Shown piece after piece: positions 2,361 through 56,195 of a DNA stretch of 58,592 bases. A program made the translations under genes and the position numbers. How positions within the stretch are numbered: the stretch's first letter is position 1; each line of letters begins with the position of its first letter. This DNA is from Candidatus Bipolaricaulota bacterium. GTDB taxonomy: Bacteria; Bipolaricaulota; Bipolaricaulia; RBG-16-55-9. The stretch is taken from positions 1 to 58,592 of the forward strand of contig JALSGO010000100.1 of assembly GCA_026982655.1 (NCBI GenBank), written 5' to 3'. The notes beneath the pieces were generated by a model. The model worked only from the letters and a program-made list of their open reading frames with translations. It searched no databases and was not told the DNA's origin.

Positions 2361-3196
2361 GCGAGCCGAGGACTGCGGAGATCTTCGCAATCGGCAACGA
2401 GCTGTTGCTGGGAATCGTCCAGGACACGAATACCCACTGGCTCTGCCGGCAGATCGCGGGTCTCGGGGGACGGGTTCGGCGGGCTACGCTGCTGCCTGAT
2501 GATCCTTCCCTCGTGGGGGCCGAACTGCGAAGGGCCCTCGAGAGGGGACCGGACCTGCTCGTGACCACGGGGGGCCTAGGCCCCACCCCGGACGACCGCA
2601 CGCTGGAGGCGATCGCACAGGCCCTAGGAGTCCCCCTGGAGGAGAGCGGAGAAGCCCTCCAAATCGTGGAGCGGCGCTATCGGGAGCTCTTCGAGCAGGG
2701 CCGGGTGGACTCCCCGGAGCTCACGGACGCCCGACGCAAGATGGCTCGGCTCCCAAAGGGGGCTCGGGCGCTGGACAACCGCGTGGGGACCGCACCGGGG
2801 GTCCTCCTTCGCCGAGGGAGGACGACGGTCGTCGCCCTCCCCGGCGTGCCTTCCGAGATGAGGGCCATCTGGGCGCACGCGCTCCCGCCTCACCTGGAGC
2901 GGATCTTCGGCCAAGGGTTCTACCTCGAGAGGACCCTCGTCGTGGCGGTCAACGATGAGTCCCTCCTGGCCCCGATTCTGCGGGAACACCAAAGCGCTTG
3001 GCCGCAGGTGTACATCAAGTCCCGTCCTCAGAGCTTCGCGGAGGGGTTCAAAATCCTCATCACGCTGGCCATGAGCGGGGAGCGCTCCGCGGTGGAGGCG
3101 ACCCTCGCCCGCGCCGTCCACGGGCTGAGGGAGCGCCTGCGGCGGGAGGGGTTGCCCGTGGAGGAGAGCCACGCCCGTGACGGGGGGACCGTTTGA
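2357..3196 (+). CDS. CinA-like MoCF-binding domain protein (competence/damage-inducible protein A N-terminal type)
   Basis: ATG 2357 overlaps the upstream TGA (ATGA 2357-2360). The N-terminus AEIFAIGNELLLGIVQDTNTHWL and LLVTTGGLGPTPDDRT are classic CinA/MoaB-fold blocks. Confidence 0.85.
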   Translation: MSEPRTAEIFAIGNELLLGIVQDTNTHWLCRQIAGLGGRVRRATLLPDDPSLVGAELRRALERGPDLLVTTGGLGPTPDDRTLEAIAQALGVPLEESGEALQIVERRYRELFEQGRVDSPELTDARRKMARLPKGARALDNRVGTAPGVLLRRGRTTVVALPGVPSEMRAIWAHALPPHLERIFGQGFYLERTLVVAVNDESLLAPILREHQSAWPQVYIKSRPQSFAEGFKILITLAMSGERSAVEATLARAVHGLRERLRREGLPVEESHARDGGTV

Positions 3197-3255
3197 CGTC
3201 GCTTCCCCCCATCGCCTACTCTACACAGCTACAGACGGGCAGAGGAGGCGAGACG

Positions 3256-4532
<1,277 letters not shown>

Positions 4533-4536
<4 letters not shown>

Positions 4537-6776
4537 AGGCTTCCCCAGCGCTGCGAGTCGCGGAGGTCCGATCTGCAACCGGGTGTCGGCCGTCGCTTCG
4601 GCGTATCCTGTGGCCGGCGGCGGCGTCAGGAGCGCTCCTCGCCGTAGCCGTGCTCACGGCTCCCCTTGGGGGACGGGCACAGCCCTCGGTGGAGGGGGAG
4701 TGGACAACGCCTCAGACGTGGCCTGTCGTCGCGGTCCACGCCGTGGTGCTCCCCACGGGGAAGGTGCTTCACTACTCCTATCCGAAGGACGGCAGCGGAT
4801 CGGAGGCGTGGCTGTGGGATCCCGCCACGAATGCCTTTACCGAGGTCTCCCTCAACGGGGTGGACCTCTTCTGCAGCGGTCAGGCCCTCCTCGGGGACGG
4901 CCGGGTGTTCGTGACGGGGGGCACCGATCCCGCCTCCCAAGACCCCGTTTTCCTGGGGATTCCGGACGTGTATACCTTTGACCCCTTTACGGAGACGTGG
5001 ACCCGGGTGGGGGAGATGGCCGTCGGGCGCTGGTACCCGACCAACGTCGCCCTTCCCGATGGGCGAATGCTCATCTTCTCGGGGCTCGACGGGAACGGCG
5101 ACCTCACGGACCTCGTGGAGAGCTACGACCCCGCCACGAACGTCCTCCAAGTCGTCCCGGGCGCGGAGCGCTTCCTCGACTTGTATCCTCGCCTCTTCCT
5201 CCTCCCCTCGGGGAAGATCTTCCACGCCGGACCGGAGCCGATCTCTGCCCTCTTTGACCCGGCCACCAACACCTGGCAGGACGCAGCCACCAGCAACTTC
5301 GGCTACCGAGGGGAGGGGACCGCGGTGCTCTTGGCGCTGGAGCCGCCGGACTACCGCCCTCGAGTGCTGATCGCGGGCGGGAGCCCCAACCCCTGGGGGG
5401 AGCCGCCCGACCCCGCGACGAACACCGCGGAGATCATCGACCTCGGGGAGCCGAACCCTACGTGGCGCTATACGGCGTCCATGGCCTACGGACGCCAGCA
5501 CCTGAACGCGGTGCTCCTCCCCGACGGCACGGTCCTCGTCATAGGGGGGACGGCCTCGGACAACGACGAGACGGCCGCCGTCTACGCCGCAGAGCTCTTC
5601 GACCCCGTGCGCGAGACGTGGACGGTGCTCGCCTCGATGCAGCGCCCGCGGATGTACCACTCCAGCGCGGTGCTCCTCCCCGACGGGCGGGTGCTTGTAG
5701 CGGGCACCGACGGGGAGTTCACCGCGGAGATCTTCAGCCCTCCCTATCTCTTTCAGGGACCGCGCCCGCAGATCGCATCCGCCCCGACGACGATCGTCTA
5801 CGGCGATCCCTTCTCCGTGAACACCCCCGACGCAACGGATATCGACCGCGCCGTGCTCGTCCGGCCCGGAGCGGCCACCCACAGCACGAACCTCGATCAA
5901 CGCCTGATCGTCCTGGAGCTTCAGCCGGGCCCGGGCGCGGACGAACTTACCCTGACCGCGCCGCCGAGCGCCGCGGTGGCCCCCCCGGGCTACTACATGC
6001 TCTTCCTGCTCGACGCCTCCGGGGTCCCCTCCGTCGCGCGGTTCGTGCGCCTTCAGGCGGCACCCGACGCCGGAACCGCAGCCACCTTCCGGGTGGATCG
6101 CCAGGGGAACGTCTACGCCGATCGGGCTTTCTTCTGCGGCCTCGTTTCGGGGTGCTTCAACGCGGGCCCGGGGGCCGACCTCGCCGAGCGGATCGACGTG
6201 ACGGAGTCGGTGGAGCCCGGAGACGTGATCGAGATCGACCCGGACCGCCCGAAGCGCTATCGCCGAGCCCGAGGCCCCTACAGCCCACGGGTGGTCGGGG
6301 TGATCGCCACCGCCCCCGCGATCACCTTGGGGAACCGCTTCTCGGAGTGGAAGCAAGACCGACCCCTTCGCCTCGATCGTCTGCGCACGATCGGCGTTCG
6401 GCCGCTGCTTGGCCCCCCCTGGCCCCGGCCGCGGGGCTTCCAAGGGGGCACGGCTCTCGAGCGGATCGCAGGCCACGGCGTCGCGGGGGGGATGTCGCTC
6501 GGCATCGCCCAATTGGTCGAACATCTCCGGGCCGAGCTCCTGCGCGCAAGCCCCGGGACGGAGCGCCCCTTGTTGGCGCTCATGGGGCGGGTCTACGTGA
6601 AGGCCACCGCGGCGAACGGCCCCATCCGCCCCGGGGATCTCCTCACCACGGCCGAGGAGCCCGGGTACGCCATGCGCTGTCCCGATCTTGCACGGTGCGA
6701 GGGGGCGATCCTCGGCAAGGCCCTCTCCCCGCTGGAGAGCGGCCGAGGCGTGATCGAGATCCTGCTCCTCCGTTGA
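4533..6776 (+). CDS. secreted copper radical oxidase (glyoxal/galactose oxidase family) with an extra ~230-aa C-terminal module
   Basis: ATG 4533 overlaps the upstream stop (ATGA 4533-4536). Signal peptide ...GALLAVAVLTAPLGGRAQP. All active-site motifs are present: DLFCSG (Cys codon 4872-4874), GRWYPT, RMYHSS, ATHSTNLDQR. The last ~231 aa form the module shared with 20806-22848 and 53493-56195. Confidence 0.85.
6574..6682 (+). repeat. 109-nt segment identical to 22643-22751
   Basis: Base-by-base comparison: tggcgctcatggggcgggtctacgtgaagg...gggtacgccatgcgctgtcc is identical in both places. The flanking bases differ (t/a upstream, c/t downstream). Confidence 0.95.
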
Positions 6777-7269: not shown

Positions 7270-7501
7270 GGCCCCGTCCCCGCGCCCGCACCCGCACCTG
7301 AACCTGACCTGCGGCCTGGAAGACACCTCCGATCGTGTCTCCGCAGGGTCGATCTGCCGGAAGACCTCGGTGCGATGGCCTCACCGCCAAGGGACCTCCG
7401 CGCAAGGGACCGAGACTACCCCTTCCTCCGCGAAGGGGGAAGGCATAACGGGAGTATGGAACGAGAGATGCAGTAAGGAAGGGAGGAAAGGAAGGAGGAC
7501 A

Positions 7502-8038
7502 ATGGCCCGTCCGAAGAAGAAACGACAAAGAGGGAAGGGAACGCCAACGGCAACGACTATGAGTCCGCACTCGCCCCGGTCGCCTCAGGAGCGACTCAAC
7601 CTCTGGATCGCCGGGGGGAGCGCTCTGGTCATCGGGGTGGTGATCCTGCTGGTAGGGCTTTCGTCCCTCTCCGAATCGAGGGACACCCGCGTTCTCCCCC
7701 CGATCACCGTGGTAGGGCACATCGAGCGCTATCCCGAGGAACGGATCTCACGGGAGACGCCGATCCCCCTCCCCGTGCAGCGACACATCCTCGAGCACGT
7801 TCCGCTCAGCATGGGGCAGCAGCGCCCGGGGATCTTGCTCCAGTTCAACTGCGAGAAGTTCGAATGTGCCGACGACCTGGTGGATCGCTTGGTAGCCATC
7901 GCCGAGGAGTACGAGTACGTCTACATGGCTCCTTACCCCGCCATGGACGCCAAGATCGCCTTGACGGCTTACGGACGGATCCTCACGCTCGATGAGGTGG
8001 ACGAGGAACGGATCCGCACCTTCATCGAGGGACCGTAG
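7502..8038 (+). CDS. membrane-anchored DUF3105-family protein
   Basis: ATG 7502 follows AAGGAGGA (7492-7499). Basic N-terminus plus a TM helix (LWIAGGSALVIGVVILLVGL). DUF3105-like blocks LPP.T..GH, HILEH, YVYMAPYP...IALTAYGR...IRTFIE, and a CEKFEC pair. Clear paralogue of 18616-19134. Confidence 0.75.
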   Translation: MARPKKKRQRGKGTPTATTMSPHSPRSPQERLNLWIAGGSALVIGVVILLVGLSSLSESRDTRVLPPITVVGHIERYPEERISRETPIPLPVQRHILEHVPLSMGQQRPGILLQFNCEKFECADDLVDRLVAIAEEYEYVYMAPYPAMDAKIALTAYGRILTLDEVDEERIRTFIEGP

Positions 8039-20043: not shown

Positions 20044-20736
20044 ATGCTCCGAAAGATGCTGATCGTCTCAGTTGCCCTGCTGGGAATGGGCATCACCGGA
20101 CTGGTCACCTACTCGTATTTCTTCATGCAGCGATCGCCGGAAGGGCTGGCCGAGCTGCGGCAACGGGCGGAGCAGACGGCCCTCGATCGAGGCCGGATGA
20201 TCATCACCTTCAGCCGAGGGCAGTTTATCGACAAGGACGCAGAGGTCAATCCGGAGATCACCGCACCCTTCCCCGGGTATCGCGCGCCGGACTTCGCCTT
20301 CCCGGACCTGGACGGGAAGATTTGGCAGCTGAGCGCGCTGCGGGGCAAGCCGGTGTTGCTGAACTTCTGGGCTACCTGGTGTCCCCCCTGCCGCAAGGAG
20401 ATTCCGGACCTCCAAGCGTTCCATGAGCAATACGGTGACCGGATCGTGCTGCTAGGGATCAACTGGGCCGAGGAGCCGGAGGACGTACGGGCCTTCATGG
20501 AGCGCTACGGGGCCACGTACACCACCCTCCTCGACGAGGACGGGAAGTTCTTCGTACGGTACCGCCTAACAGGCCTTCCGACGTCTTATTGGATCGACGA
20601 AGAGGGGATCATCCGCGGAATGTGGCTGGGGGCCATGGACTTGGAGGACATGGTGGAAGGGTTCCGCAAGACGACGCGGGCTCTCGACGCGGACGCGGAC
20701 GGATCGGAAAACGACGCATCCGCAGAGAGCCCCTAG
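20044..20736 (+). CDS. membrane-anchored TlpA/ResA-family thiol:disulfide oxidoreductase
   Basis: N-terminal anchor MLIVSVALLGMGITGLV. Thioredoxin fold with KPVLLNFWATWCPPCRKE (WCPPC at 20377-20391). Confidence 0.9.
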   Translation: MLRKMLIVSVALLGMGITGLVTYSYFFMQRSPEGLAELRQRAEQTALDRGRMIITFSRGQFIDKDAEVNPEITAPFPGYRAPDFAFPDLDGKIWQLSALRGKPVLLNFWATWCPPCRKEIPDLQAFHEQYGDRIVLLGINWAEEPEDVRAFMERYGATYTTLLDEDGKFFVRYRLTGLPTSYWIDEEGIIRGMWLGAMDLEDMVEGFRKTTRALDADADGSENDASAESP

Positions 20737-20805: not shown

Positions 20806-22848
20806 ATGACCGAGCGAGGAAGGATCGGCGTAGGAGTCGGGTGGATCTGGGCTGCGCTGTTGGGCCTTCTCGCCCCGACAGCAGGGGCCACAAGCTACGT
20901 CCCCATGGCGGATCGGGACCTCGCCGAAGGCGCCTCTCTCCTCATCGTCGGACAGGTGTTGGAAACCCGTCCTTCCGTCGCCGCCGATCGGGTATACACC
21001 GACTACCTCGTTCGCGTAGAAGAGGTCCTCCAGGGCGGCAGGGAGCAGCCCCTGCAGACCGTGGTCGTGCGGGTCCTCGGGGGCGAAGGTCCCGACGGGC
21101 TGTCCTTGAAGATCTGGGGCGCCCCACGCTTCCGGCCTTCGCAACGGGTGATCCTCTTCCTGAACCCCCATCCGGACGGGACGTTCCGGATTTACCAGTT
21201 CTTTCTGGGGGCCTTCGTGGAGATCACCGTGGGCGGCCGCCGAATCGCCTTCCGAGACCTAGCGGACGTCCACGCCGTCTCCCCGCCGGGGTGGGGCGTG
21301 CCTCCCGAGCCGGCGACGCGGGTGCGCGACTTCGAGGGGTTCGTCCGCTGGCTCCGAGACCGCGCGGCGGGAAGGGAGCGCGAGCCGGACTACTTCCTCT
21401 CTTTGAGCGCGAGCGACCTGATCTCCGTACGGGCCCAGTTCACCCTCTTCGAGGTACAGGGGCTGAACTTGCGGTGGTTCGAGTTCGACTCCGGGGGGAG
21501 CGTGGACTGGTACGCCCACCAGGACGGTCAGTCCGGACTGGCAAGCGGCGGCTTCCCGGAGTTCCAAAACGCACTGGCCGCCTGGAATAACGAACCCGCT
21601 ACTCCCATCAACTACGTCTACCAGGGGACGACCGCCTCCACCGGCGGTTTCACCGCAAGGGACAACCTCAACGCCATCCTCTTCGACGATCCCAACGACG
21701 AGATCGACGGCAGCTTCGACTGCGCGACCGGAGGGGTCTTGGCCGTCGGAGGGCCCTGGTACCAAGGGCAGGCGACCTTTCAGGGGGAGACCTACTGGGT
21801 CATCGTCGAGGGGGACATCATCACCCAAGACGGGGTTTCCTGCTTTTTCCAAAACAGCTCGACTCCAAGCAAGGCGGCCGAGGAGCTCTTCGGTCACGAG
21901 CTCGGACACACCCTAGGGATCGACCACTCCTGTGACGACGACCCGAGCACTCCCCCTCCCCCCTGCAGCAGCGACCCCGTTCTCGACGATGCCCTCATGC
22001 GGGCCTACGTCCACAACGACGGACGAGGAGCCCAGCTCAACAGCGACGACCAAGCCGCTGCCCGCGCCCTCTACGAACAGCCGGGCAACCCCGATCCCAC
22101 CGCCGCGGTCTTCACCGTGGCCAACGACGGGACCGTGCGCTCCGATCGGGCCTACTTCTGCGGCCTCTCTCAAGGGTGCTTCAACGCGGGTCTGGGAGCG
22201 GACTTGGCAGAGCGCATCGACGTAGTCGAGCCCGTCGAACCCGGAGACGTCGTGGAGATCGACCCGGATAACCCGAAACGCTATCGCAAAGCCCGTAGAG
22301 CGTACAGCGACTTGGTGGCTGGGGTAATCGCCACCCAGCCGGGGATCACCTTGGCCAACCGACCGGACGAACGGCAACAAGTCCCACGCTACCTAAGGGC
22401 ACTCCTCGCGCTGCGGGAGGCCGGCGTTCCCCCGCTCCTGCAGGCCCTGCTGACTCCCCTTCCCCGGGCGCTCGAAGGGGCCACGGCGGTATGGCTAGAA
22501 GCGACCGCACACCCGACCCCTTTCGTCAACTCCCTCAAGAGCAAGAGGGGGATGGGGGCGAGCCTGGCCGACTTGGAGGAGCAGCGCCGCTGGCAGGTCG
22601 TTTGGGAACGGGCGACGGCGAAGCTCCCCGGGAGGCCTCTGATGGCGCTCATGGGGCGGGTCTACGTGAAGGCCACCGCGGCGAACGGCCCCATCCGCCC
22701 CGGGGATCTCCTCACCACGGCCGAGGAGCCCGGGTACGCCATGCGCTGTCCTCGGGCGGAGCTCTGCGAGGGGGCGATCGTGGGCAAGGCCCTCGAGCCC
22801 CTCCCCCGGGGAGAGGGGCTCATCCTGGTGCTGGTCACGGCCAAGTGA
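20806..22848 (+). CDS. secreted metzincin-type zinc metalloprotease carrying the shared C-terminal module
   Basis: Signal peptide GWIWAALLGLLAPTAGA. HELGHTLGIDH at 21895-21927 is followed by a Met-turn candidate DDALMRAY. The last ~249 aa form the module shared with 4533-6776 and 53493-56195. Confidence 0.8.
   Translation: MTERGRIGVGVGWIWAALLGLLAPTAGATSYVPMADRDLAEGASLLIVGQVLETRPSVAADRVYTDYLVRVEEVLQGGREQPLQTVVVRVLGGEGPDGLSLKIWGAPRFRPSQRVILFLNPHPDGTFRIYQFFLGAFVEITVGGRRIAFRDLADVHAVSPPGWGVPPEPATRVRDFEGFVRWLRDRAAGREREPDYFLSLSASDLISVRAQFTLFEVQGLNLRWFEFDSGGSVDWYAHQDGQSGLASGGFPEFQNALAAWNNEPATPINYVYQGTTASTGGFTARDNLNAILFDDPNDEIDGSFDCATGGVLAVGGPWYQGQATFQGETYWVIVEGDIITQDGVSCFFQNSSTPSKAAEELFGHELGHTLGIDHSCDDDPSTPPPPCSSDPVLDDALMRAYVHNDGRGAQLNSDDQAAARALYEQPGNPDPTAAVFTVANDGTVRSDRAYFCGLSQGCFNAGLGADLAERIDVVEPVEPGDVVEIDPDNPKRYRKARRAYSDLVAGVIATQPGITLANRPDERQQVPRYLRALLALREAGVPPLLQALLTPLPRALEGATAVWLEATAHPTPFVNSLKSKRGMGASLADLEEQRRWQVVWERATAKLPGRPLMALMGRVYVKATAANGPIRPGDLLTTAEEPGYAMRCPRAELCEGAIVGKALEPLPRGEGLILVLVTAK
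22123..22190 (+). repeat. 68-nt segment identical to 55482-55549
   Basis: aacgacgggaccgtgcgctccgatcgggcctacttctgcggcctctctcaagggtgcttcaacgcggg is identical in both genes. The next base differs (t versus c). Confidence 0.95.
22643..22751 (+). repeat. 109-nt segment identical to 6574-6682
   Basis: See the 6574-6682 feature; this is the second copy of that segment. Confidence 0.95.
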
Positions 22849-32286: not shown

Positions 32287-33132
32287 ATGAGAGCAAACTC
32301 GACATTCTCAATATGGAAGATCGGTCTGGGAACGGCCCTGCTTGCGTGGATCTTGGCCCCGCAGCTCGGTCCCCCCCGGGACGGCTATGCCGCGGGGGGG
32401 ATGGTAGAGGTCCCACGGCACTTCCGGACGGTGCTCCCCCTTGCCCCTGTAGACGTCGTAGGAGTGGTCCGGACCGCCCAGCAACAGGGCTACTGGATTC
32501 GCATCCAGACGGGAACGGATGTGACGTACTTTAAAGGCATGACGCCCTGCTCCGCCTGCGATCCCTCCCAAGAGGCGACGTTTTTCGTCCCGCCGTGGCT
32601 GGTTGTGGACCGACAGTGGTTCTGGCTCCATCGGGACGAGCCCGGCTGGATCCTGCACCTTAGGCCCTCGGGGGAGCAGACGGGATCGTACGAGATGATC
32701 GTCTCGCCCAAACTCCCCAAGACGGAGCTCACAAGCGACGACCTCGAGGGGATCGTAGGGGTGCTGGCCCCCTTCGGTCTGCTTCCTCAGACGCCTTCCT
32801 TGACGTTGGAGCCGTATATCGTCCCGGCCAAGCCCGCGCCCCCGGAGGGCGTCCGGCTGGACTCCGTGCTCTACGGGTTGGTGCTCGCGCCGGACTGGAC
32901 CCTATACGCCCGTGAACGGGGCATCGAACGATCGGGGCTCCGAGTCCGGGTGGTGATCGAGCGCAGCGCGCCGGGCGCGTTGCCATCACCGGCGTGGGAG
33001 CTGGTGATCGAGGCCGAATCCGAAGGGTTTATCCGCGCCCAGGCGCTCATCCCGCGGCTGGTGGAGCTGGCCCGGGATCCGGCGGTAGGGTTCGTCCGAC
33101 CGCCGACCCGCCCCCAGCCCGGCACCCCTTAA
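32287..33132 (+). CDS. secreted hypothetical protein whose C-terminal half resembles the pro-domain of the downstream S8 protease
   Basis: ATG 32287 follows GGAGGAGGAG. Signal peptide IGLGTALLAWILA. The C-terminus LDSVLYGLV...GLRVRVVIERS...FIRAQALIPRLVELARDPAVGFVRPPTRP parallels the S8 N-terminus VDSALAQLL...NAILVVAEVS...LKLRIPLQNQPLTLLLKLAQLGGIRFVRPPLRP. Confidence 0.65.
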   Translation: MRANSTFSIWKIGLGTALLAWILAPQLGPPRDGYAAGGMVEVPRHFRTVLPLAPVDVVGVVRTAQQQGYWIRIQTGTDVTYFKGMTPCSACDPSQEATFFVPPWLVVDRQWFWLHRDEPGWILHLRPSGEQTGSYEMIVSPKLPKTELTSDDLEGIVGVLAPFGLLPQTPSLTLEPYIVPAKPAPPEGVRLDSVLYGLVLAPDWTLYARERGIERSGLRVRVVIERSAPGALPSPAWELVIEAESEGFIRAQALIPRLVELARDPAVGFVRPPTRPQPGTP

Positions 33133-33161
33133 CACGAACGCAACGTAAAGGAGTACTGCCT

Positions 33162-36100
33162 ATGCACTTGGCGAGAGAGGGTTGCAGGAACGCTTCGCGT
33201 AGGAACTCCCGGTGGGAGAGTCGGGGAAGGAAAAGAGGATGGGGAAGGGCGCTGGCAGCCTTTGGATTGCCCTTCCTCCTCCTGCTTGGCTCCCTAGGAC
33301 CGATCGAGCCGAGCCCCCCGGACGTCTGGGCTCAACCGACCCCGCAGAAATCCTCCCCCAGCGGCAACGTCGACAGCGCGCTGGCCCAACTATTGGCCAG
33401 TGTCCAGAGCGCCCGCGTCAGCGCACAAGGGGTCGTCCAGCAGGCGAGTCGTGCGGGCATCCCGGTAGAGGGCAACGCCATCCTCGTCGTTGCCGAGGTG
33501 TCCGGCCCGGCGGCGGCGATCGCCTCCGCCGTCGCCCAAGCCCTGGGGGGGGATCTCCTCGTCGCCACGTCCCGCAACTTCCTCAAGCTTCGGATTCCGC
33601 TCCAGAACCAGCCGCTTACCCTGCTGTTGAAGCTGGCGCAGCTGGGAGGAATCCGTTTCGTGCGGCCGCCGCTTCGGCCCGCCGCTCAGGTGATCAGCGA
33701 GGGCGTGGCTCTTACGGGAGCTTCGCTCTTGCATGCCAACGGCGTGCGGGGCCAAGGGGTCAAGATCGCGATCATCGACCTGGGCTTTGCCGGGCTCTCC
33801 GCCGCGCAGGCCCGGGGGGAGCTTCCCACCAACGTCCTCACCTTTGACTTCACCGGCACGGGCATCGAGGGGACCGTCTCCCACGGGACGGCGGTGGCCG
33901 AGATCGTCCACGACATGGCCCCCAACGCCCAGCTGCTGCTCATGAAAGTCGCCGACGAGGTGGGCCTGGAGAACGCCGTGGACGAGGCGATCCGCCAGGG
34001 CGTGCAGATCATCAACCACTCCGTGGCGTGGTTCAACACGAACTTCTACGACGGGACGGGTCCCATCGCGGCGGCGGCCCAGCGGGCCCGCTCCGCGGGG
34101 ATCGTGTGGGTGAACGCCGCGGGGAACTACGCCCGACGCCACTGGCAGGGGTTCGCCTCCGACGGCGACGGGGACGGCTGGGTCGAGTTCGCCCCCGGCG
34201 TGGAGGGCCTGCGGCTGAGCGCCCGCGCCGGGGAGGCCGTTCAGGTGTTTCTCACCTGGAACGACTGGCCGCGCTCCTCTCAAGATTATGATCTCTACGT
34301 GGTCGACAGCCGCGGGGCGATCGTGGCCGCTTCAGAGCGGCTGCAGAACGGGACCCAGCCCCCCACGGAGACCCTCTTCTTCACGGCCCCGGCCACGGAC
34401 ACCTACGAGATCCGGGTCCGGCCCGCGAGCGTGAGCGTCCCCCGGGCGCTCTCCATCTTCAACTTGAACCAAGACCTCACGCCCTACGTCCCCTCCGGGA
34501 GCATCGTCACCCCGGCGGACTGCAGCTGTACGTTGGCCGTCGGGTCCGTGAGCTTCCCGAACTGGACCACCGGGCCTCTCGACCCCTTCAGCTCGCAGGG
34601 ACCCACCACCGACGGGCGGCTCAAGCCCGACCTGGTGGGGCCCAGTGGGGTAACCGTCTCGACTGCGGGGTGGAACCCCTTCATCGGGACGAGCGCCGCC
34701 GCGCCCCACGTCGCGGGGGCCGCTGCGTTGCTCCTCTCGGAGAACCCCTCGCTGGGAGCTGCCCAGCTGGAATCCAAGCTCAAGGGCGACGCGATCCCCA
34801 TGGGCTCGGCCACCCAGTACGGCGCCGGGCGACTCAACCTCACCCCCTCGATCGCACGACAGCCCGACTTGACGATCGCGAACCCGACCTTCACGCCCGC
34901 TTCGCCCCGCATCGGGGACTTCATCACTGTGACGGCCCAAGTGCGCAACCAGGGGAGCGCCGACGCGGGCCCGTTCGCCGTCCGGCTCCAAGACGCCTTC
35001 GGGACGCTGCAGCAGAGCTTCTCCGGGCTGGCCGCCGGGGCTTCCGTCAGCGTGAGCTTCCAGCGCCAAGTGCGCCAGACCCAGGACACGATCACCCTCA
35101 CGGTCGATCCCTTCAACCAGGTGAGCGAGTCCGACGAGGGGAACAACACCGTGCAGCTCACCGTGCGGGCGCAGCAGGTCCCGCAGCTTCCGGACCTCGT
35201 GATCGCGGAGGCGAGCTACTCGCCCGCTCGCCCTCGGGTAGGCGACCCCGTGACGTTTGCCCTGACGGTCGCCAACTCCGGAGGGGCTCCCGCCGGGGCC
35301 TTCTTCGTCGAGGTGCGCGGCAGCGCAGGAGCTTCCCGAGCGTATCTATCAGGACTCGCTGCCGGCGCGTCTGCGGTCCTGCAGCTTCAGGTGCCCCTCT
35401 CCGCCCCCACGGAGACCTTTACGGCCTTTGTGGACGTGCTCGGCCAGGTCACCGAGGCCAACGAGGACAATAACGTCGTCTCGATCCCGGTCCAAGGGGA
35501 GGGAGCCAACCCGCTCCGCGTGGAGGTCGAGACGGACCGCTCGGCCTACGTGGTGGGGGATCCCATCGAGATCACGCTGACCCTGGGGACGGAGGGGTAC
35601 ATCTACCTCTACGACGTCGACGCGCAGGGGCAGGTGAGGATCCTCTATCCGACCTCCGAGGGGAGCTCCGCCTTCCTGCAGGCAGGCACCTACGACGTCG
35701 CGGAGCTGCTCGGTGTGGCCTATCTGCAGGTGACCCCGCCGCCGGGGACGGAGGCCCTGCACGCCCTGCTCACCGACCGTCCGGCGAACCTTGGGCTTCA
35801 CGGACTGCAGAACCCCTCCTTTGTCGACCCCAACGCCTTCCGGACGACCCTTCTCCAACGCCTGCAGGCCGTGGCCCCCTCCGCCGCCTGGGCTTGGGAC
35901 GCGGCGACCTTCACCGTGCAGGGCTCCCCGCCGGCCAACCGCCCCCCCGTGGCCCGCTTCGCCTACACCCCGTCTGCCCCTGTGGTCCACCAGGTCGTCA
36001 CCTTCGACGGCTCTTCCTCGTTCGATCCCGACGGAACGATCGTCGAGTGGCGTTGGACCTTCGAGGGGGCGACCACGGTGGAGGCCCGGGGCGTTCAAGT

Positions 36101-37019
36101 CAACGTGCGCTTCACGACCGCCCGAACCTATCGGGTGACGCTTACGGTGACGGACAACCAAGGGGCGACCGACTCCACCACCCAGACCGTCGAAGTGCTC
36201 GCCGCGCCGCCTCCGCCCCCGAACCGCCCTCCCGTCGCGCAGTTCACCTTCAGCCCTCAGACTCCCCAAGTGAACGAGCTCGTCACCTTCGACGGACGGA
36301 CTTCCTCCGATCCGGACGGGACCATCGTGCAGTATCGCTGGGATCTCAACGGGGACGGCCGCATCGACGCGCAGGGCGCCGTGATCCAGGCCCGCTACGC
36401 TCGCGCAGGGACCTACACCGTGACCTTGACCGTCGTGGACAACCAGGGGGCCACCGCCTCCGCTTCCCGCACGATCTCCGTGGGCTCCGCGCCCCCGCCT
36501 CCCCCATCGCTCCCCGAGGGTGTAGGGTTCTACTTGCTCAGCGAGGAGCCCGACACGCTTCGGATCGTCGTCCAAGGCGACCCTGCCTGGGGCGACGAGA
36601 CGCGCTCCTTCCGCCTGTTGGTGCGGCCTCTGACGGGGGCGCTGCGGGGCAATCCCACGGTCGAGACGGAAGGAGCCGCCTCGGCCCGGCCCCCTCGTTC
36701 GCAGGGGAACCTCCTCCTCTTGGAGGGGCGGGTGGGCCAGGGTCGGGTGGTCTTCCTCCTGAAGATCGTCTTCTCCCGCGGCGCGCAGCAGCTCGTCGAG
36801 CTGGCTCCGGAGATGGACGTAGACGGCGACGGCCGACGGGAGAAGTGGCCGCAAGTTCCGGCCTTCGTGGTCTTGGACGGGGAGGTCTACCCCATCGAGA
36901 TCCCCACGAACCGTACGGGGTTCATCCTGCGGGCCCGGAACGGCTCTCTCTTCCCCTTTGCTCGAGGGGTCCTAGAAATCTGCGATCCGACGCTGCGCAC
37001 CTGTATCTCTCCGCCCTAA
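33162..37019 (+). CDS. secreted subtilisin-like (S8) serine protease with two CARDB, one DUF4384, two PKD and an unnamed C-terminal domain
   Basis: ORF 32994-37019 trimmed to ATG 33162, which follows AAAGGAG. Catalytic Asp in VKIAIIDLGF (33777-33779), His in SHGTAV (33882-33884), Ser in GTSAAAPHVAG (34692-34694). CARDB blocks end in ...SDEGNNT / ...ANEDNNV. DUF4384 block YVVGDPIEITLTL..YIYLYDVDAQGQVRILYP. Two NRPPVA.F...PDGTIV..RW PKD units. Confidence 0.9.
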   Translation: MHLAREGCRNASRRNSRWESRGRKRGWGRALAAFGLPFLLLLGSLGPIEPSPPDVWAQPTPQKSSPSGNVDSALAQLLASVQSARVSAQGVVQQASRAGIPVEGNAILVVAEVSGPAAAIASAVAQALGGDLLVATSRNFLKLRIPLQNQPLTLLLKLAQLGGIRFVRPPLRPAAQVISEGVALTGASLLHANGVRGQGVKIAIIDLGFAGLSAAQARGELPTNVLTFDFTGTGIEGTVSHGTAVAEIVHDMAPNAQLLLMKVADEVGLENAVDEAIRQGVQIINHSVAWFNTNFYDGTGPIAAAAQRARSAGIVWVNAAGNYARRHWQGFASDGDGDGWVEFAPGVEGLRLSARAGEAVQVFLTWNDWPRSSQDYDLYVVDSRGAIVAASERLQNGTQPPTETLFFTAPATDTYEIRVRPASVSVPRALSIFNLNQDLTPYVPSGSIVTPADCSCTLAVGSVSFPNWTTGPLDPFSSQGPTTDGRLKPDLVGPSGVTVSTAGWNPFIGTSAAAPHVAGAAALLLSENPSLGAAQLESKLKGDAIPMGSATQYGAGRLNLTPSIARQPDLTIANPTFTPASPRIGDFITVTAQVRNQGSADAGPFAVRLQDAFGTLQQSFSGLAAGASVSVSFQRQVRQTQDTITLTVDPFNQVSESDEGNNTVQLTVRAQQVPQLPDLVIAEASYSPARPRVGDPVTFALTVANSGGAPAGAFFVEVRGSAGASRAYLSGLAAGASAVLQLQVPLSAPTETFTAFVDVLGQVTEANEDNNVVSIPVQGEGANPLRVEVETDRSAYVVGDPIEITLTLGTEGYIYLYDVDAQGQVRILYPTSEGSSAFLQAGTYDVAELLGVAYLQVTPPPGTEALHALLTDRPANLGLHGLQNPSFVDPNAFRTTLLQRLQAVAPSAAWAWDAATFTVQGSPPANRPPVARFAYTPSAPVVHQVVTFDGSSSFDPDGTIVEWRWTFEGATTVEARGVQVNVRFTTARTYRVTLTVTDNQGATDSTTQTVEVLAAPPPPPNRPPVAQFTFSPQTPQVNELVTFDGRTSSDPDGTIVQYRWDLNGDGRIDAQGAVIQARYARAGTYTVTLTVVDNQGATASASRTISVGSAPPPPPSLPEGVGFYLLSEEPDTLRIVVQGDPAWGDETRSFRLLVRPLTGALRGNPTVETEGAASARPPRSQGNLLLLEGRVGQGRVVFLLKIVFSRGAQQLVELAPEMDVDGDGRREKWPQVPAFVVLDGEVYPIEIPTNRTGFILRARNGSLFPFARGVLEICDPTLRTCISPP

Positions 37020-53026: not shown

Positions 53027-53111
53027 CGTTCCTGAGCGACACAACAAGAAACCCTTGGGAAGCCTTAAAGAGAGCGAGAACGAGGAAGAGGAAGGGGAGG
53101 GGATCCATGCC

Positions 53112-53471
53112 ATGCGGAGTATCCGGCAGAGCATCCTCGGCTTCATCGTTTTAGCCAGCTTGACGGCCGTGCTTGGGGGGTGCGCACCGACGTCCCCGTC
53201 CCCCTCGAAGGTCGAGCTCGTCGGACGGCTCCACGTGCTTTGGGGCGATGGTCCCCCGAACTCTCAAAAGTCGACACGCGAGTACTGGCTGAAGGACGAA
53301 GCCAACCGGTGGTATCGGCTCCTCCTCAAGGAGGAGCTGCTGCAGCCCTGGGGAGGGCCTCAAGCCCTCGACGGCCGCTGGATCCGCATCCGCGGCGAGA
53401 TGGTCGACCCGCAAGCTCCTCTCGTGCGGGTCCTTTTCCTGCAGCCCCAGCCGGAGCCATTCCCAACGTAA
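53112..53471 (+). CDS. small lipoprotein homologous to the N-terminal domain of the downstream protease-like protein
   Basis: ATG 53112 follows GGGGAGGGGA. Lipobox LGGC. LVGRLHVLWGDGPP...YRLLLKEELLQPWGG aligns with LVGQLYVLWGDGEP...YRLAISEALLRRWGG of 53493-56195. Confidence 0.65.
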   Translation: MRSIRQSILGFIVLASLTAVLGGCAPTSPSPSKVELVGRLHVLWGDGPPNSQKSTREYWLKDEANRWYRLLLKEELLQPWGGPQALDGRWIRIRGEMVDPQAPLVRVLFLQPQPEPFPT

Positions 53472-53492: not shown

Positions 53493-56195
53493 ATGACAAC
53501 GAGCACGAAGACCACGCCGACGAAGGGCTCAAGAGGTTCCCTGCTGGGGCGACTTCTTCTCCTCGCCCTTGGGTGGATCGTCTTGGTGGGCACGCCGTTG
53601 GGGAGCCCAGAGGGTGGGGGAGAAGGGTTCGGCAGGGAGCCCACCCCGTCCCCGCCTCCCCCTAGGGGCCAAGGGCAGGATGGGACCGACGTGCTCGTCG
53701 GACAGCTGTACGTCCTCTGGGGCGATGGAGAGCCGGGAAGCGGGGTGCAGCGGACGGAGTTCCGCCTCGTAGACGACCGCCTGCGGACGTACCGCTTAGC
53801 CATTTCCGAAGCGCTGCTACGCCGCTGGGGAGGCCTGCTGCGACTGAATCGCCAGCGGGTGGCCGTCGCGATCGATGCCGCGGCTCGACAGGCGGACGCG
53901 CTGGTGGTGCGCGACCTCACCCCCAAGGCATCCCTCGCCTCCGCCGGCCACCTCCTTCCCCCGGTGACCGGCTCCCAACCTTGGGTGACGATCCTCTGTC
54001 GCTTCGGGGACTCTACGAACGTAACACCCCATCCCAAGACGTGGTTCGAAACGCTCATGGGGAACTCCTACCCCGGGATGGATCACTTCTGGCAAGAGGT
54101 CTCGTACAACCAGATGGACCTTGCCGGTAGCGTCGTGGTGGGGTGGTACGACCTCCCTCAACCCCGGTCGTACTACGTATACGACCGAGACGGGGATGGG
54201 GAGGAGGATCTCGACCACGGACGAGCCATCACGGACTGCACGGCTGCTGCAGACAAGGACGTGTACTTCCCGGACTTTAGGGGGATCAACCTCATGTTTA
54301 ACGAGACGCTAGGCTGCTGTGCCTGGGGCGGGAGCTGGACCCTCAACCGCGATGGGACGGAAAAGCACTACTCGGTCACCTGGATGCCCCCTTGGGGGTA
54401 CGAGACCCAGGGGGTCCTCGGCCAAGAGATGGGCCATGGGTTCGGGCTCCCCCACTCCTCCGGCCCCTACCAGAGCACCTACGACTCCGCCTGGGATGTG
54501 ATGAGTCGCGCTTGGGGTATGTGTCAGAACCCCCATCCTGACTACGGCTGCATCGGGGTTCACACCATTGCCTACCACAAGGACCTATTGGGGTGGATCC
54601 CCCCTTCCCGCAAGTACATCCCTTCCCCGGGGAGCACGCAGATGATCACGCTCGACCGCTTGGCCAACCCTCCCACCTCGACCCGTTTCCTCCTGGCTCA
54701 GATCCCTCTCCCCGGGGGAACGCAGTTCTACACGGTAGAGCTGCGTACCTTCTCCGGGTACGACGTGGAGACCCCCGGCCAAGCCGTGGTGATCCACCGC
54801 GTAGACCCCACACGAGTCGATCGCAACGCCCAGGTCGTGGACGTCGACAACGATCAAGACCCCAACGACGTGGGGGCCATGCTCTTGAGTCGTCCCGTGG
54901 CCGTCCTCTGGAACCAGGGGGAGACCTACACCGACCCGACGATCGGCCTGGAGGTGGAGGTGCTCAGCGAGAGCGCGGGCTCCTTCGACGTGAGGATTAG
55001 CTACAACCCTCCCAGCTGCGACGGCACCGTGGAGGAGGACTTCGAGACCGGGGATCTCTCGAAGTACCCCTGGACCACCGGTGGGGACGGGAGCTGGGCG
55101 GTGGCCAGCGACTTCGCCGATTCGGGGACGTACTCCGCCAAGTCGCCCCCGATCGCGGACAACCAGAGTTCGTACTTGGAGGTCACGCTCGACGTCCAAA
55201 GCGGGGCCATCTGCTTCTCCCGCAAGGTCTCCTCCGAGAGCGGCTACGACTTCCTGGAGTTCTACATCGACGGGCAGAAGGTCGCCTCCTGGTCCGGGGA
55301 CCTCAACTTCGGGCCGGTCGGCCCCTTCGGCGTCACCGCGGGGACGCACACCTTCCGCTGGGTGTACGTCAAGGACTCCAGCGTCAGTGCAGGACAGGAC
55401 GCCGCTTGGATCGACGACATCGATTTCCCCCCGATCGAGACCGGGGGATCGAACCCCACGTCCGCCGTGTTCTCGGTGGCGAACGACGGGACCGTGCGCT
55501 CCGATCGGGCCTACTTCTGCGGCCTCTCTCAAGGGTGCTTCAACGCGGGCCTGGGGGCGGACTTGGCGGAGCGCATCGACGTCACCGAGCCCGTCGAGCC
55601 GGGGGACGTGATCGAGATCGACCCGCACAACCCGGAGCGCTACCGCAAGGCCCGCCAACCCCTCAGCTCAAGGGTGGTGGGGGTGATCGCCACCGCCCCG
55701 GGGATCACGCTGGCCAACTCGCCCGCGGAGCGGCAGGCCCTGGCGGAGCGCTCCCGGAGCGCCCGACTCCTTCGGGCTTCCGGCGTCTCCCCCCACCCCT
55801 GGCTCTCCGCGCTCCTCTCGCCTCCCTATGCCCAGACAGAGCCCCGCGCGAGCGTACACGCGCTCCTCCGTCCCCTTCCCTTCTCCGTCTCCGTGGGAGT
55901 GGGAGCCGGGTTGGCCGAGCTGCTCGACCAACAACGGGAAGCGCGGGTCCTCCTCCGCGTCCTGCCGTTCCTAGGGCCGGGGAGACCCCTGCTGGCCCTG
56001 ATGGGCCGAGTGTACGTCAAGGCGACGACGGAGAACGGCCCCATCGCCCCGGGGGACCTCTTGACGACGGCCTCGAAGCCCGGGTACGCCATGCGCTGTC
56101 CCTCTCCTAAGGCGTGCGTCGGCGCGCTCCTGGGCAAGGCGCTCGAACCCCTCCCCGAAGGCGAGGGGCTCATCGAGGTGCTCCTGTTACGTTAA
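53493..56195 (+). CDS. large secreted zincin-like (M6/InhA-like context) protein with a variant QEMGH site, a MAM/CUB-like jelly-roll domain and the shared C-terminal module
   Basis: ATG 53493 lies 9 nt after GAGGTGA. Has a signal peptide. VTILCRFGDS...YYVYD and GVLGQEMGHGFGLPHS...WDVMS (54423-54455) resemble the M6-type catalytic region, but Gln replaces the first His. YDFLEFYIDG...AWIDDIDF forms the jelly-roll domain. The last ~245 aa form the shared module. Confidence 0.8.
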   Translation: MTTSTKTTPTKGSRGSLLGRLLLLALGWIVLVGTPLGSPEGGGEGFGREPTPSPPPPRGQGQDGTDVLVGQLYVLWGDGEPGSGVQRTEFRLVDDRLRTYRLAISEALLRRWGGLLRLNRQRVAVAIDAAARQADALVVRDLTPKASLASAGHLLPPVTGSQPWVTILCRFGDSTNVTPHPKTWFETLMGNSYPGMDHFWQEVSYNQMDLAGSVVVGWYDLPQPRSYYVYDRDGDGEEDLDHGRAITDCTAAADKDVYFPDFRGINLMFNETLGCCAWGGSWTLNRDGTEKHYSVTWMPPWGYETQGVLGQEMGHGFGLPHSSGPYQSTYDSAWDVMSRAWGMCQNPHPDYGCIGVHTIAYHKDLLGWIPPSRKYIPSPGSTQMITLDRLANPPTSTRFLLAQIPLPGGTQFYTVELRTFSGYDVETPGQAVVIHRVDPTRVDRNAQVVDVDNDQDPNDVGAMLLSRPVAVLWNQGETYTDPTIGLEVEVLSESAGSFDVRISYNPPSCDGTVEEDFETGDLSKYPWTTGGDGSWAVASDFADSGTYSAKSPPIADNQSSYLEVTLDVQSGAICFSRKVSSESGYDFLEFYIDGQKVASWSGDLNFGPVGPFGVTAGTHTFRWVYVKDSSVSAGQDAAWIDDIDFPPIETGGSNPTSAVFSVANDGTVRSDRAYFCGLSQGCFNAGLGADLAERIDVTEPVEPGDVIEIDPHNPERYRKARQPLSSRVVGVIATAPGITLANSPAERQALAERSRSARLLRASGVSPHPWLSALLSPPYAQTEPRASVHALLRPLPFSVSVGVGAGLAELLDQQREARVLLRVLPFLGPGRPLLALMGRVYVKATTENGPIAPGDLLTTASKPGYAMRCPSPKACVGALLGKALEPLPEGEGLIEVLLLR
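55482..55549 (+). repeat. 68-nt segment identical to 22123-22190
   Basis: See the 22123-22190 feature; this is the second copy of that segment. Confidence 0.95.

Follow-up and report, generated by a model that had tools for sequence, protein, structure and literature searches.

The window, a stretch of 58,592 nucleotides from a Candidatus Bipolaricaulota bacterium, contains three genes for unrelated secreted enzymes that end in the same C-terminal module of about 240 residues. Gene A (4533–6776, forward strand) encodes a secreted copper-radical-oxidase-like protein composed of a kelch propeller, a GO-like E-set domain and the module. Its open reading frame of 821 aa matches the Pfam models Glyoxal_oxid_N, Kelch and GO-like_E_set, and these matches stop at residue 580. 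The start is most likely at 4533 rather than 4311; translation from 4533 gives a product of 747 aa that matches database protein P0154 exactly, and the N-terminus of the product reads as a signal sequence, hydrophobic and containing an RR motif.

Gene B (20806–22848, forward strand) encodes a secreted M10-like metzincin (HELGHTLGIDH; Pfam Peptidase_M10) followed by the module. An exact copy of this protein is present on an ENA metagenome contig, and its passenger shares 80% identity with a protein from a Bipolaricaulota metagenome-assembled genome (MAG) that likewise bears the module. Gene C (53493–56195, forward strand) encodes a secreted M11/gametolysin-like protein with the zinc motif QEMGHGFGLPH, a jelly-roll-like domain and the module. 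A direct Pfam scan of its product gave no match; the 78% identical orthologue in L002 matches Peptidase_M11. All three proteins carry signal peptides, their closest relatives are found in Bipolaricaulota/Acetothermia MAGs, and the enzyme–module fusions are kept in orthologues at 41–80% identity.

A gene for a TlpA-like thioredoxin lies directly upstream of gene B. An earlier note on this DNA had linked CcdA/TlpA to the cysteines of the module, a link that is not supported: the gene adjoins only one of the three module genes, and thioredoxins of this class are generally reductive.

Anatomy of the module

As the earlier note had proposed, the three C-termini align block by block, all in frame, over 235–251 residues with pairwise identities of 58–65% (tblastn E-values between copies of 1e-74 to 1e-93). 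The open reading frames lie where the earlier note placed them; the in-frame starts of the modules are 6069, 22093 and 55452, and their ends 6776, 22848 and 56195. No fourth copy was found in the window.

Module A spans 6069–6776 on the forward strand. Its neck (6069–6176), the part predicted to be retained on the enzyme, consists of an F-x-V-x3-G-x-V strand segment and a Cys-x5-Cys loop, ends in PGA and aligns with the residues ahead of S691 in gp12 of phage phi29, the pre-neck appendage or tail-spike protein. The N-block (6177–6335) opens with an invariant D-L-A-E and would form the first half of a fold resembling gp12 domain D4. It is followed by a variable insert of 76 aa (6336–6563) and by the C-block (6564–6776, including the stop codon), the predicted second half of the fold, which reads RPLLALMGRVYVK...GDLL...PGYAM...GKAL...IEILLLR and is collinear with REWHVVGLLGQIAVRI...GYGVAIVLVK of gp12. 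Module B (22093–22848, forward strand) is divided in the same way into neck (22093–22200), N-block (22201–22359), insert (22360–22632, 91 aa) and C-block (22633–22845). The corresponding parts of module C (55452–56195, forward strand), the copy used for structure prediction, are 55452–55559, 55560–55718, 55719–55982 (88 aa) and 55983–56192.

The C-blocks of the window copies are 75–76% identical between otherwise unrelated proteins. Codon positions 1 and 2 of the conserved blocks are 73–90% identical, compared with 58–72% at position 3, a pattern that indicates purifying selection on these blocks and not recent duplication. Divergence at third codon positions, together with a separate orthologue elsewhere for each copy, led us to reject gene conversion or a recent duplication as the source of the similarity.

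In the wider family the median length of the insert is 12 aa, compared with 76–91 aa in the window. It had been thought to lack detectable similarity between the three copies; aligned, the inserts are 34–41% identical and retain a small LR..GV.P.LL motif. Judged from the alignments, the insert appears to be a tolerated variable loop, and gp12 too has an insertion at this point. Both cysteine motifs are of the form C-x5-C, the second (CPDLARC, CPRAELC or CPSPKAC) having previously been read as C-x6-C. The four cysteines are indeed invariant among the three window copies, but not across 217 family members, where the first pair occurs in 22% and the second in about 65%, each pair being gained or lost as a unit. 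Cysteines are thus optional in the family, and we discarded them as the defining mark of the module. The family has its own invariants in V-K, GDLL and GKAL.

Relationship to domain D4 of phi29 gp12

No Pfam model, including PF11962 (Peptidase_G2, 'IMC autoproteolytic cleavage domain'), matched the three module copies even at E ≤ 10. PF11962 did not match the full-length window proteins either, so that the curated model does not itself place them among its members. NCBIfam gave only chance-level matches to the window modules, PHROGs nothing usable, and a PDB search with a profile built from the three window copies alone only a chance match to scytovirin.

The link to Peptidase_G2 emerges from the wider family. 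Homologue P0086, which belongs to the family with a profile E-value of 2.4e-47, matches PF11962 with an E-value of 6.9e-6 and 26.1 bits, above the gathering score of 25. PF11962 is the commonest Pfam match among 69 family members, seven of which reach E ≤ 0.1, and family members match it in one consistent register at profile positions of about 6–103. When the family profile was run against 177,635 PDB sequences, the best match, marginal at E 0.069, was 3gqh_A, a C-terminal fragment of phi29 gp12, aligned with a gap where the insert lies. Comparison of the family with a 17-sequence G2 alignment using hhalign gave a collinear succession of neck, D-x-A-E motif, first half, insert, second half and C-terminal strand, with a global E-value of 9.4e-5, yet a probability of only 18–31%. 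In default local mode the alignment halts at the insert (probability 18–25%), and global and low-mact runs cover both halves with a probability still not above 31%. At the level of profiles, these sequences point to a homology with bona fide G2 domains that reaches the window copies through other family members, and we regard homology of the module to gp12 D4/Peptidase_G2 as well supported.

An AlphaFold2 monomer model of module C has an overall pLDDT of 79, with 94–98 for the conserved blocks (N-block 96–98, C-block 94–98), a less confident neck (53–75) and a low-confidence, helical insert. The top Foldseek matches of this model are 3suc and 3gqh_A, with probabilities of 1.00 and 0.99, a target TM-score of 0.58 and a marginal E-value of about 6e-3. 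With a short homologue as query, every match was a phage protein of the tandem beta-tulip type; 3suc and 3gqh were among them at a probability of 1.0. The models thus assign the module to the tandem beta-tulip fold class, with N-block and C-block predicted to correspond to the two halves of gp12 D4. Published descriptions of this gp12 domain give it tandem beta-tulips and an autochaperone role in trimerisation (bioRxiv 10.1101/216911); it is missing from the virion (PMC9863714).

The module resembles gp12 D4 (PF11962; 3GQH, 3SUC) in its location at the extreme C-terminus, in the tandem beta-tulip fold, in its collinear blocks, interrupted by an insertion at a matching site, and in a hydrophobic terminal strand with a basic end. 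It differs from G2 in that the window copies remain under every Pfam threshold and in having V-K, GDLL and GKAL of its own. The likeness to phage chaperone or auto-processing domains suggested in the earlier note is borne out for Peptidase_G2 by the profiles, the fold search and an aligned cleavage motif. Peptidase_S74 (PF13884), the other family proposed, was rejected, as Pfam gave no match at E ≤ 10. The earlier note had held that a confident match to a chaperone domain already characterised would remove the novelty of the module; the link to gp12 D4 reduces the novelty but does not remove it, because no curated model recognises the window copies and their passengers are globular secreted enzymes.

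Motif conservation and family distribution

The 3GQH chain comprises 163 residues and begins exactly at D692 of D-F-A-E-Y. The D-L-A-E of the module aligns to D692-F-A-E695 of gp12, two of whose residues, D692 and E695, we take to have roles in catalysis. Nothing in the family is better conserved than D-x-A-E: its D, A and E each occur in 210–212 of 217 members, and the only substitution is a single Cys at the Glu position. In the 17-sequence G2 alignment the corresponding D43 and E46 are invariant. The continuation differs, as the Y-F-E-S that follows the motif is invariant in G2 and unconserved in the module family, which lacks the E-Y-F-E-S continuation. By alignment, the module thus appears to possess the acidic motif at the gp12 scissile position (S691/D692), where the released gp12 fragment begins. 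By analogy, it is predicted to cut between Ala and Asp, at 6174–6176/6177–6179 in module A, 22198–22200/22201–22203 in module B and 55557–55559/55560–55562 in module C, all on the forward strand.

The family comprises about 27,000 clusters at 50% identity, and at least 537 stretches of GTDB species representatives match the module. Its position is almost constant: it lies 0–1 residues from the C-terminus in nearly all members of two sets, one of 120 proteins and one of the 150 best representatives, and in 93 of the 95 open reading frames of a third set, and all three window copies end their protein. Most carriers have signal peptides, and they are found in bacteria as well as in DPANN and ANME archaea, organisms with very different envelopes. 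Among uncultivated bacteria and archaea, secreted proteins bear the module very often. A jumbo-phage virion protein whose gene adjoins a tail-fibre gene carries it as well.

Passengers are fibre-like and enzymatic alike. Frequent protease passengers are subtilases with N-terminal prodomains, M10, M11 and C10; many others are collagen or Gly-rich sequences without Pfam matches, which may be fibre-like. In the window the passengers are globular (a kelch propeller with an E-set domain, an M10-like and an M11-like metzincin), and a trimeric beta-helical spike was not found among them. The module shares with PPC domains and the C-terminal pro-sequences of subtilases the character of a removable C-terminal extension (predicted here) on secreted hydrolases, but is unrelated to them in sequence and fold; in some family members, such as P0016, a PPC domain stands upstream of the module and does not replace it.

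Possible functions of the module

We consider it probable that the module is a divergent member of the G2 superfamily that serves secreted enzymes as a self-cleaving trimerisation pro-domain, with the cut at Ala|Asp. Homology, fold class, C-terminal position, invariance of D-x-A-E, signal peptides and the retention of the fusions in orthologues are directly supported; trimerisation, self-cleavage and ATP-free extracellular release we infer by analogy with gp12. Modelled on gp12, three precursor chains would meet through their C-terminal modules after export. Assembly would line up the conserved neck of about 35 residues and thereby render the passengers trimeric, at least transiently. The assembled module would then hydrolyse its own chain directly before the Asp of D-x-A-E (codons 6174/6177, 22198/22201 and 55557/55560) and be shed, leaving the mature enzyme with a short neck and the Cys-x5-Cys loop at its C-terminus.

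Several observations count against this reading. The globular passengers are unlike the interdigitated trimeric beta-helices known for such chaperones, the passenger of gp12 itself being a trimeric beta-helix. Release of the gp12 domain is reportedly (Xiang et al. 2009) an ATP-dependent step in the cytoplasm; the module carriers have signal peptides and are extracytoplasmic, where such an ATP-dependent release cannot apply. No curated model matches the window copies, the profile, PDB and Foldseek statistics are weak, the invariants V-K, GDLL and GKAL are not found in G2, and the Y-F-E-S of G2 is not conserved here.

In functional logic, the proposed pro-domain resembles Peptidase_S74 (the ICA domain), likewise a C-terminal trimerising chaperone that removes itself after assembly, but the two have no sequence relation. 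Peptidase_S74 has a different, helical fold and a different chemistry based on a Ser-Lys dyad. For the reuse of a phage intramolecular-chaperone (IMC) domain by a cellular non-fibre protein there is a precedent in MYRF (PMC3742440, PMC8326128).

The fold leaves room for a module that does not cleave. The non-cleaving cement proteins of Pam3, HFTV1, Sf11 and BB1 and the phi29 gp8.5 base match in Foldseek at least as well as gp12, and because such non-self-cleaving tandem beta-tulip proteins match about as well, the fold alone does not imply cleavage. No self-cleavage is known for the tandem beta-tulip decoration and cement proteins or for the gp8.5 base. The module could thus be a trimerisation or surface-docking foot that holds the enzymes as stable trimers, perhaps on an S-layer-like lattice. 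This alternative is modelled on beta-tulip decoration proteins seated at the three-fold sites of capsids; the decoration and cement proteins and the gp8.5 base (8HDT_G, 8QSY, 9OCB, 6QYY) belong to the same fold class as the module and form trimers (bioRxiv 10.1101/216911). A common binding partner would also suit the high C-block identity (75–76%) within one genome, and the family-specific GKAL, GDLL and V-K are absent from G2. Nevertheless, we consider a docking foot unlikely. Links at the sequence level lead solely to Peptidase_G2 and none to decoration proteins, which are stand-alone capsid binders without D-x-A-E and without profile-level similarity to the module. A pure scaffold would not need D-x-A-E as its most conserved feature at the gp12 scissile position, and the very different envelopes of the bacterial, DPANN and ANME carriers argue against a single docking lattice.

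A further alternative is a C-terminal pro-peptide for secretion, or a sorting domain, that the protein needs in order to cross the outer envelope or attach to it and that another protease then removes, analogous to T9SS CTDs or to the pro-sequences at the C-terminus of certain secreted subtilases and metalloproteases. The module always forms the extreme C-terminus of signal-peptide proteins, proteases (subtilases, M10, M11, C10) are common among its passengers, and it ends in a hydrophobic strand with a basic residue after it, all of which would fit a sorting role. The terminal strand with its basic residue is also present in cytoplasmic phage gp12 (VAIVLVK), however, where it is structural. 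Models of known sorting domains gave no match, phage virion proteins and organisms of differing envelope types also have the module, and a non-systematic look at the genes beside the three window genes showed no conserved partner. We thus regard this alternative as quite improbable. On the same grounds of absent model matches and occurrence in virions and varied envelopes, LPXTG, PEP-CTERM and T9SS CTD signals were rejected as identities of the module, in line with the earlier note and with Pfam and NCBIfam scans that were empty of such models; with its folded core of about 155 aa, the module is not a short signal.

Finally, that the Peptidase_G2 likeness is convergent or spurious and the module an unrelated beta-rich domain of unknown role seems very hard to credit: each statistic is weak by itself (hhalign 18–31%, PDB E 0.069, Foldseek E about 6e-3), but independent methods converge on the same one protein out of whole databases, register, insert position, terminal strand and D-x-A-E all agree, and one family member exceeds the curated Pfam threshold.

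Extending the self-cleaving pro-domain beyond the window, we tentatively suggest that the G2-like cassette could be a general ATP-free extracellular maturation device for secreted proteins of many uncultivated bacterial phyla and of DPANN/ANME archaea, trimerising and then removing itself on fibres and on globular exoenzymes, although this broader reading is at present rather doubtful. The exoenzymes concerned would be oxidases, metzincins, subtilases and glycosidases. Mixed trimers, or small multi-enzyme bundles, are conceivable, because one genome puts near-identical modules on different enzymes.

Intramolecular chaperones that cut themselves off are a textbook feature of phage spikes and fibres. 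To our knowledge, S74 in the transcription factor MYRF is the one well-known case of cellular reuse, and it drew wide attention. A second domain type of this kind, G2, is now found as a very large unannotated family, mostly on secreted cellular proteins that include globular enzymes. If the module does not cleave, its invariant D-x-A-E at the gp12 scissile position requires another explanation. If the processing is real, current annotation has overlooked a common pro-domain, the true mature C-termini and the oligomeric state of many environmental exoenzymes would become predictable, and the module would provide a compact, self-removing trimerisation tag for use outside the cytoplasm.

The shared C-terminal module

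Genes A (copper-radical-oxidase-like), B (M10-like metzincin) and C (M11-like) were located by ORF listing and translation at 4311/4533–6776, 20806–22848 and 53493–56195, all on the forward strand; the start of gene A is probably 4533 rather than the one first proposed. The last 235–251 residues of the three products are 58–65% identical (MAFFT), and tblastn within the window links copy to copy with E-values of 1e-74 to 1e-93, confirming the earlier note's claim that the C-termini of three otherwise unrelated proteins share one module. The same search finds no fourth copy in the window. According to Pfam, the upstream parts (passengers) are mutually unrelated: protein A contains Glyoxal_oxid_N, Kelch and GO-like_E_set domains, protein B matches Peptidase_M10 weakly, and protein C has no match, its orthologue at 78% identity matching Peptidase_M11. 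In the conserved blocks of the window copies, codon positions 1 and 2 have diverged less than position 3, and each copy has a separate orthologue with the same fusion elsewhere (P0229 for A, 41% identical; L004 for B, 80%; for C, L002 with 78% and L008 with 46%). The fusions are thus old and selected, and a recent duplication of the module is ruled out.

The module core comprises ~155 aa, and the loop between its two blocks has a family median of 12 aa versus 76–91 aa in the window copies. The insert, previously described as lacking detectable similarity, retains a small LR..GV.P.LL motif. D-x-A-E is present in 210–212 of 217 family members; PGD, the G of GV, AL.G.V.VK, GDLL, PG..M and GKAL are further family-wide invariants. 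The cysteines form two C-x5-C motifs (the second had been read as C-x6-C) and, although thought invariant, are optional in the family, 22% of members having pair 1 and about 65% pair 2. The two cysteines of a pair come and go together (47/48 and 139/145), which suggests optional loop-stapling disulfides. A TlpA-like thioredoxin is encoded directly upstream of gene B (20044–20736), with nothing like it beside genes A or C in the window. Since the cysteine pairs are also dispensable, the idea that a CcdA/TlpA system serves them is unsupported, and we regard this neighbour as fortuitous or, at best, locally convenient.

Relationship to the autochaperone domain of phi29 gp12

Modules A, B and C give nothing meaningful in Pfam or NCBIfam (both E ≤ 10) or in PHROGs, in agreement with the view that they are not LPXTG, PEP-CTERM, T9SS CTD or PKD; the Pfam scan likewise excludes Peptidase_S74. 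Several close homologues match PF11962 (Peptidase_G2, hereafter G2), the C-terminal domain D4 of phi29 gp12, in consistent register. P0086 does so with an E-value of 6.9e-6 and 26.1 bits, over the gathering score of 25, and P0018, P0056 and P0064 match more weakly; with seven matches, PF11962 is the commonest Pfam family among 69 members. Against the PDB sequence set, a 48-sequence family profile scores best with 3gqh_A ('Preneck appendage protein', E 0.069), and the long gap in this alignment falls exactly at the insert.

Translated from NC_011048, gp12 reads ...GGNTWS691/D692FAEYFESLDGQVIETGYLVTLEKGKIRKAEKGEKIIGVISETAGFVLG...(insert)...REWHVVGLLGQIAVRID...GYGVAIVLVK; from its length (163 residues) and the register of the profile alignment, the 3GQH chain starts at D692. 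Using hhalign, A36-D37-L-A-E40 of the module is placed on S691-D692-F-A-E695 of gp12, and in global mode the two are collinear across the whole domain (E 9.4e-5). The D and E of this scissile motif are invariant in an alignment of 17 true G2 domains, all annotated PF11962.

An AF2 model of module C has a mean pLDDT of 79 (blocks 94–98, insert < 50). Foldseek, a check the earlier note had proposed, returns 3suc (pre-mature gp12) and 3gqh_A as its top two matches, with probabilities of 1.00 and 0.99 and a TMt of 0.58. A 154-aa homologue (model pLDDT 82) matches only tandem beta-tulip phage proteins, among them cement/decoration proteins, the gp8.5 base and, with a probability of 1.0, gp12. The suspected resemblance to a phage pre-neck-appendage chaperone was therefore essentially right for G2, and the two blocks of the bipartite layout each match one half of the D4 tandem beta-tulip domain. 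D4 is described as tandem beta-tulips that serve as an autochaperone for trimerisation (bioRxiv 10.1101/216911), and the virion lacks this intramolecular chaperone (IMC) domain (PMC9863714). As told in the former source, homology to bacterial adhesins was noted earlier by Xiang et al.

Distribution, carriers and gene neighbourhoods

At least 162 proteins came up in a word-indexed search, all of them metagenomic and labelled 'hypothetical proteins' (Bipolaricaulia, KSB1 and other groups). Searched exhaustively with HMMER, 1.84 billion cluster representatives gave 27,449 matches at E ≤ 1e-3, 20,839 at E ≤ 1e-10 and 2,425 at E ≤ 1e-30. Scanning one genome per GTDB species yielded at least 537 matching stretches, from bacteria (Bipolaricaulota/Acetothermia, Fraserbacteria, Acidobacteriota, Chloroflexota, Omnitrophota, Elusimicrobia, Verrucomicrobia, Planctomycetota and Salinibacter) and archaea (Woesearchaeota, Nanoarchaeia and ANME-1). 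The module lies 0–1 residues from the C-terminus in nearly all of 120 proteins, 93 of 95 ORFs and nearly all of the best 150 HMMER representatives, and 54 of 70 complete ORFs start with a hydrophobic signal segment. Most passengers have no Pfam match, and many are Gly-rich and may be fibre-like. Others are peptidases (subtilases with N-terminal prodomains; C10, M10 and M11) or contain collagen repeats, LamG, NIDO, GH42M-like, fn3 or PPC domains, PKD domains, a GH5 cellulase or a cupredoxin. A 1341-aa window subtilase with CARDB, DUF4384 and PKD domains (32994–37019, +) has no module, so that not every secreted enzyme of this genome is tagged with it.

Phage representatives exist but are rare: 12 of 50,697 phage records carry the subfamily, all PA5oct-like jumbo phages or Sinorhizobium phage Phosso, and IMG/VR holds only five loci. 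In Pseudomonas jumbo phage PA5oct the carrier is gp359 (L086:1969–3405), ending ...KY/ADLAERYE...GVISTSAG...VALAGRVPVKV..., whose gene adjoins that of the long tail fibre distal subunit. It is a virion structural protein by mass spectrometry, annotated only as hypothetical/virion structural protein.

Two or three module genes are often adjacent in tandem (L005, L009, L013, L026, L030, L047, L048, L053, L055, L073, L076), including in ANME-1 and Woesearchaeota archaea. ORFs of 148–175 aa, hardly longer than the module (L020:1293–1832, L030:1070–1537 and 2496–2978, L053, L077, L079; P0064), may represent either gene calls cut short or free-standing versions that act in trans.

A secreted PQQ-type glucose/sorbosone dehydrogenase (3193–4536, +; Pfam GSDH, E 2e-46) overlaps gene A at 4533–4536, ending four bases past its likely start, and the two oxidoreductases probably share a transcript. 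Within its signal, protein A has S-L-R-R-I-L-W, which may be a twin-arginine motif; in that case the module would fold before export. DUF3105 proteins occur twice, downstream of gene A (7370–8038, +) and, in L087 (811–1329), upstream of the TlpA-like gene preceding B.

The zinc-binding motif of protein C, QEMGHGFGLPH (54552–54584, residues ~354–364), has Gln for the first His of HExxHxxGxxH. The closest orthologues, L002 and P0167, share this Gln, and the more distant P0231 and L008 have the canonical HEMGHGWGWPH, which suggests that protein C is a pseudo-protease or has a changed metal site. An ORF just 5' of gene C (53055–53471, +) encodes 138 aa that begin with a signal-like segment, and is a paralogue of the domain with which protein C opens (40% identity over 78 aa, E 2e-13; LVGRLHVLWGDGPPNS versus LVGQLYVLWGDGEPGS); the L002 and L008 orthologues open with this domain too. 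The ORF could be a stand-alone copy of a pro-domain or of an inhibitor-like domain.

Proposed function

The G class of MEROPS comprises glutamic peptidases, and we take the Glu of G2 to be catalytic. We infer that the module would be a self-cleaving trimerisation pro-domain, with hydrolysis and release at a predicted Ala/Asp bond: Ala 6174–6176/Asp 6177–6179 in module A, Ala 22198–22200/Asp 22201–22203 in module B and Ala 55557–55559/Asp 55560–55562 in module C (all +). The ~35 module residues upstream of this bond (F-x-V-x3-G-x-V... and the first Cys pair) would be left on the mature enzyme, forming a short neck. Of this picture, the analysis shows the homology, the fold class, the C-terminal position, the invariance of the motif, the signal peptides and the conservation of the fusions, whereas trimerisation, hydrolysis at this bond and release are deduced from them.

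In several respects the family departs from bona fide G2. The G2 model of Pfam misses the window copies, conservation does not extend to the E-Y-F-E-S continuation, and the family has invariant Lys/Asp residues of its own (V-K, GDLL, GKAL). Its carriers are exported, and ATP, which is reportedly required for release of gp12 D4, therefore cannot take part; its passengers include globular enzymes with no obvious need for trimerisation in folding. Because of these differences two rival readings stay in play: a trimer foot or docking domain that does not cleave, which we consider unlikely, and a secretion pro-peptide removed in trans, which seems quite improbable.

The module introduces neither a new fold nor a new principle; it forms a large and so far unannotated branch of a phage assembly-chaperone superfamily, mainly cellular and extracytoplasmic, here carried by ordinary enzymes.
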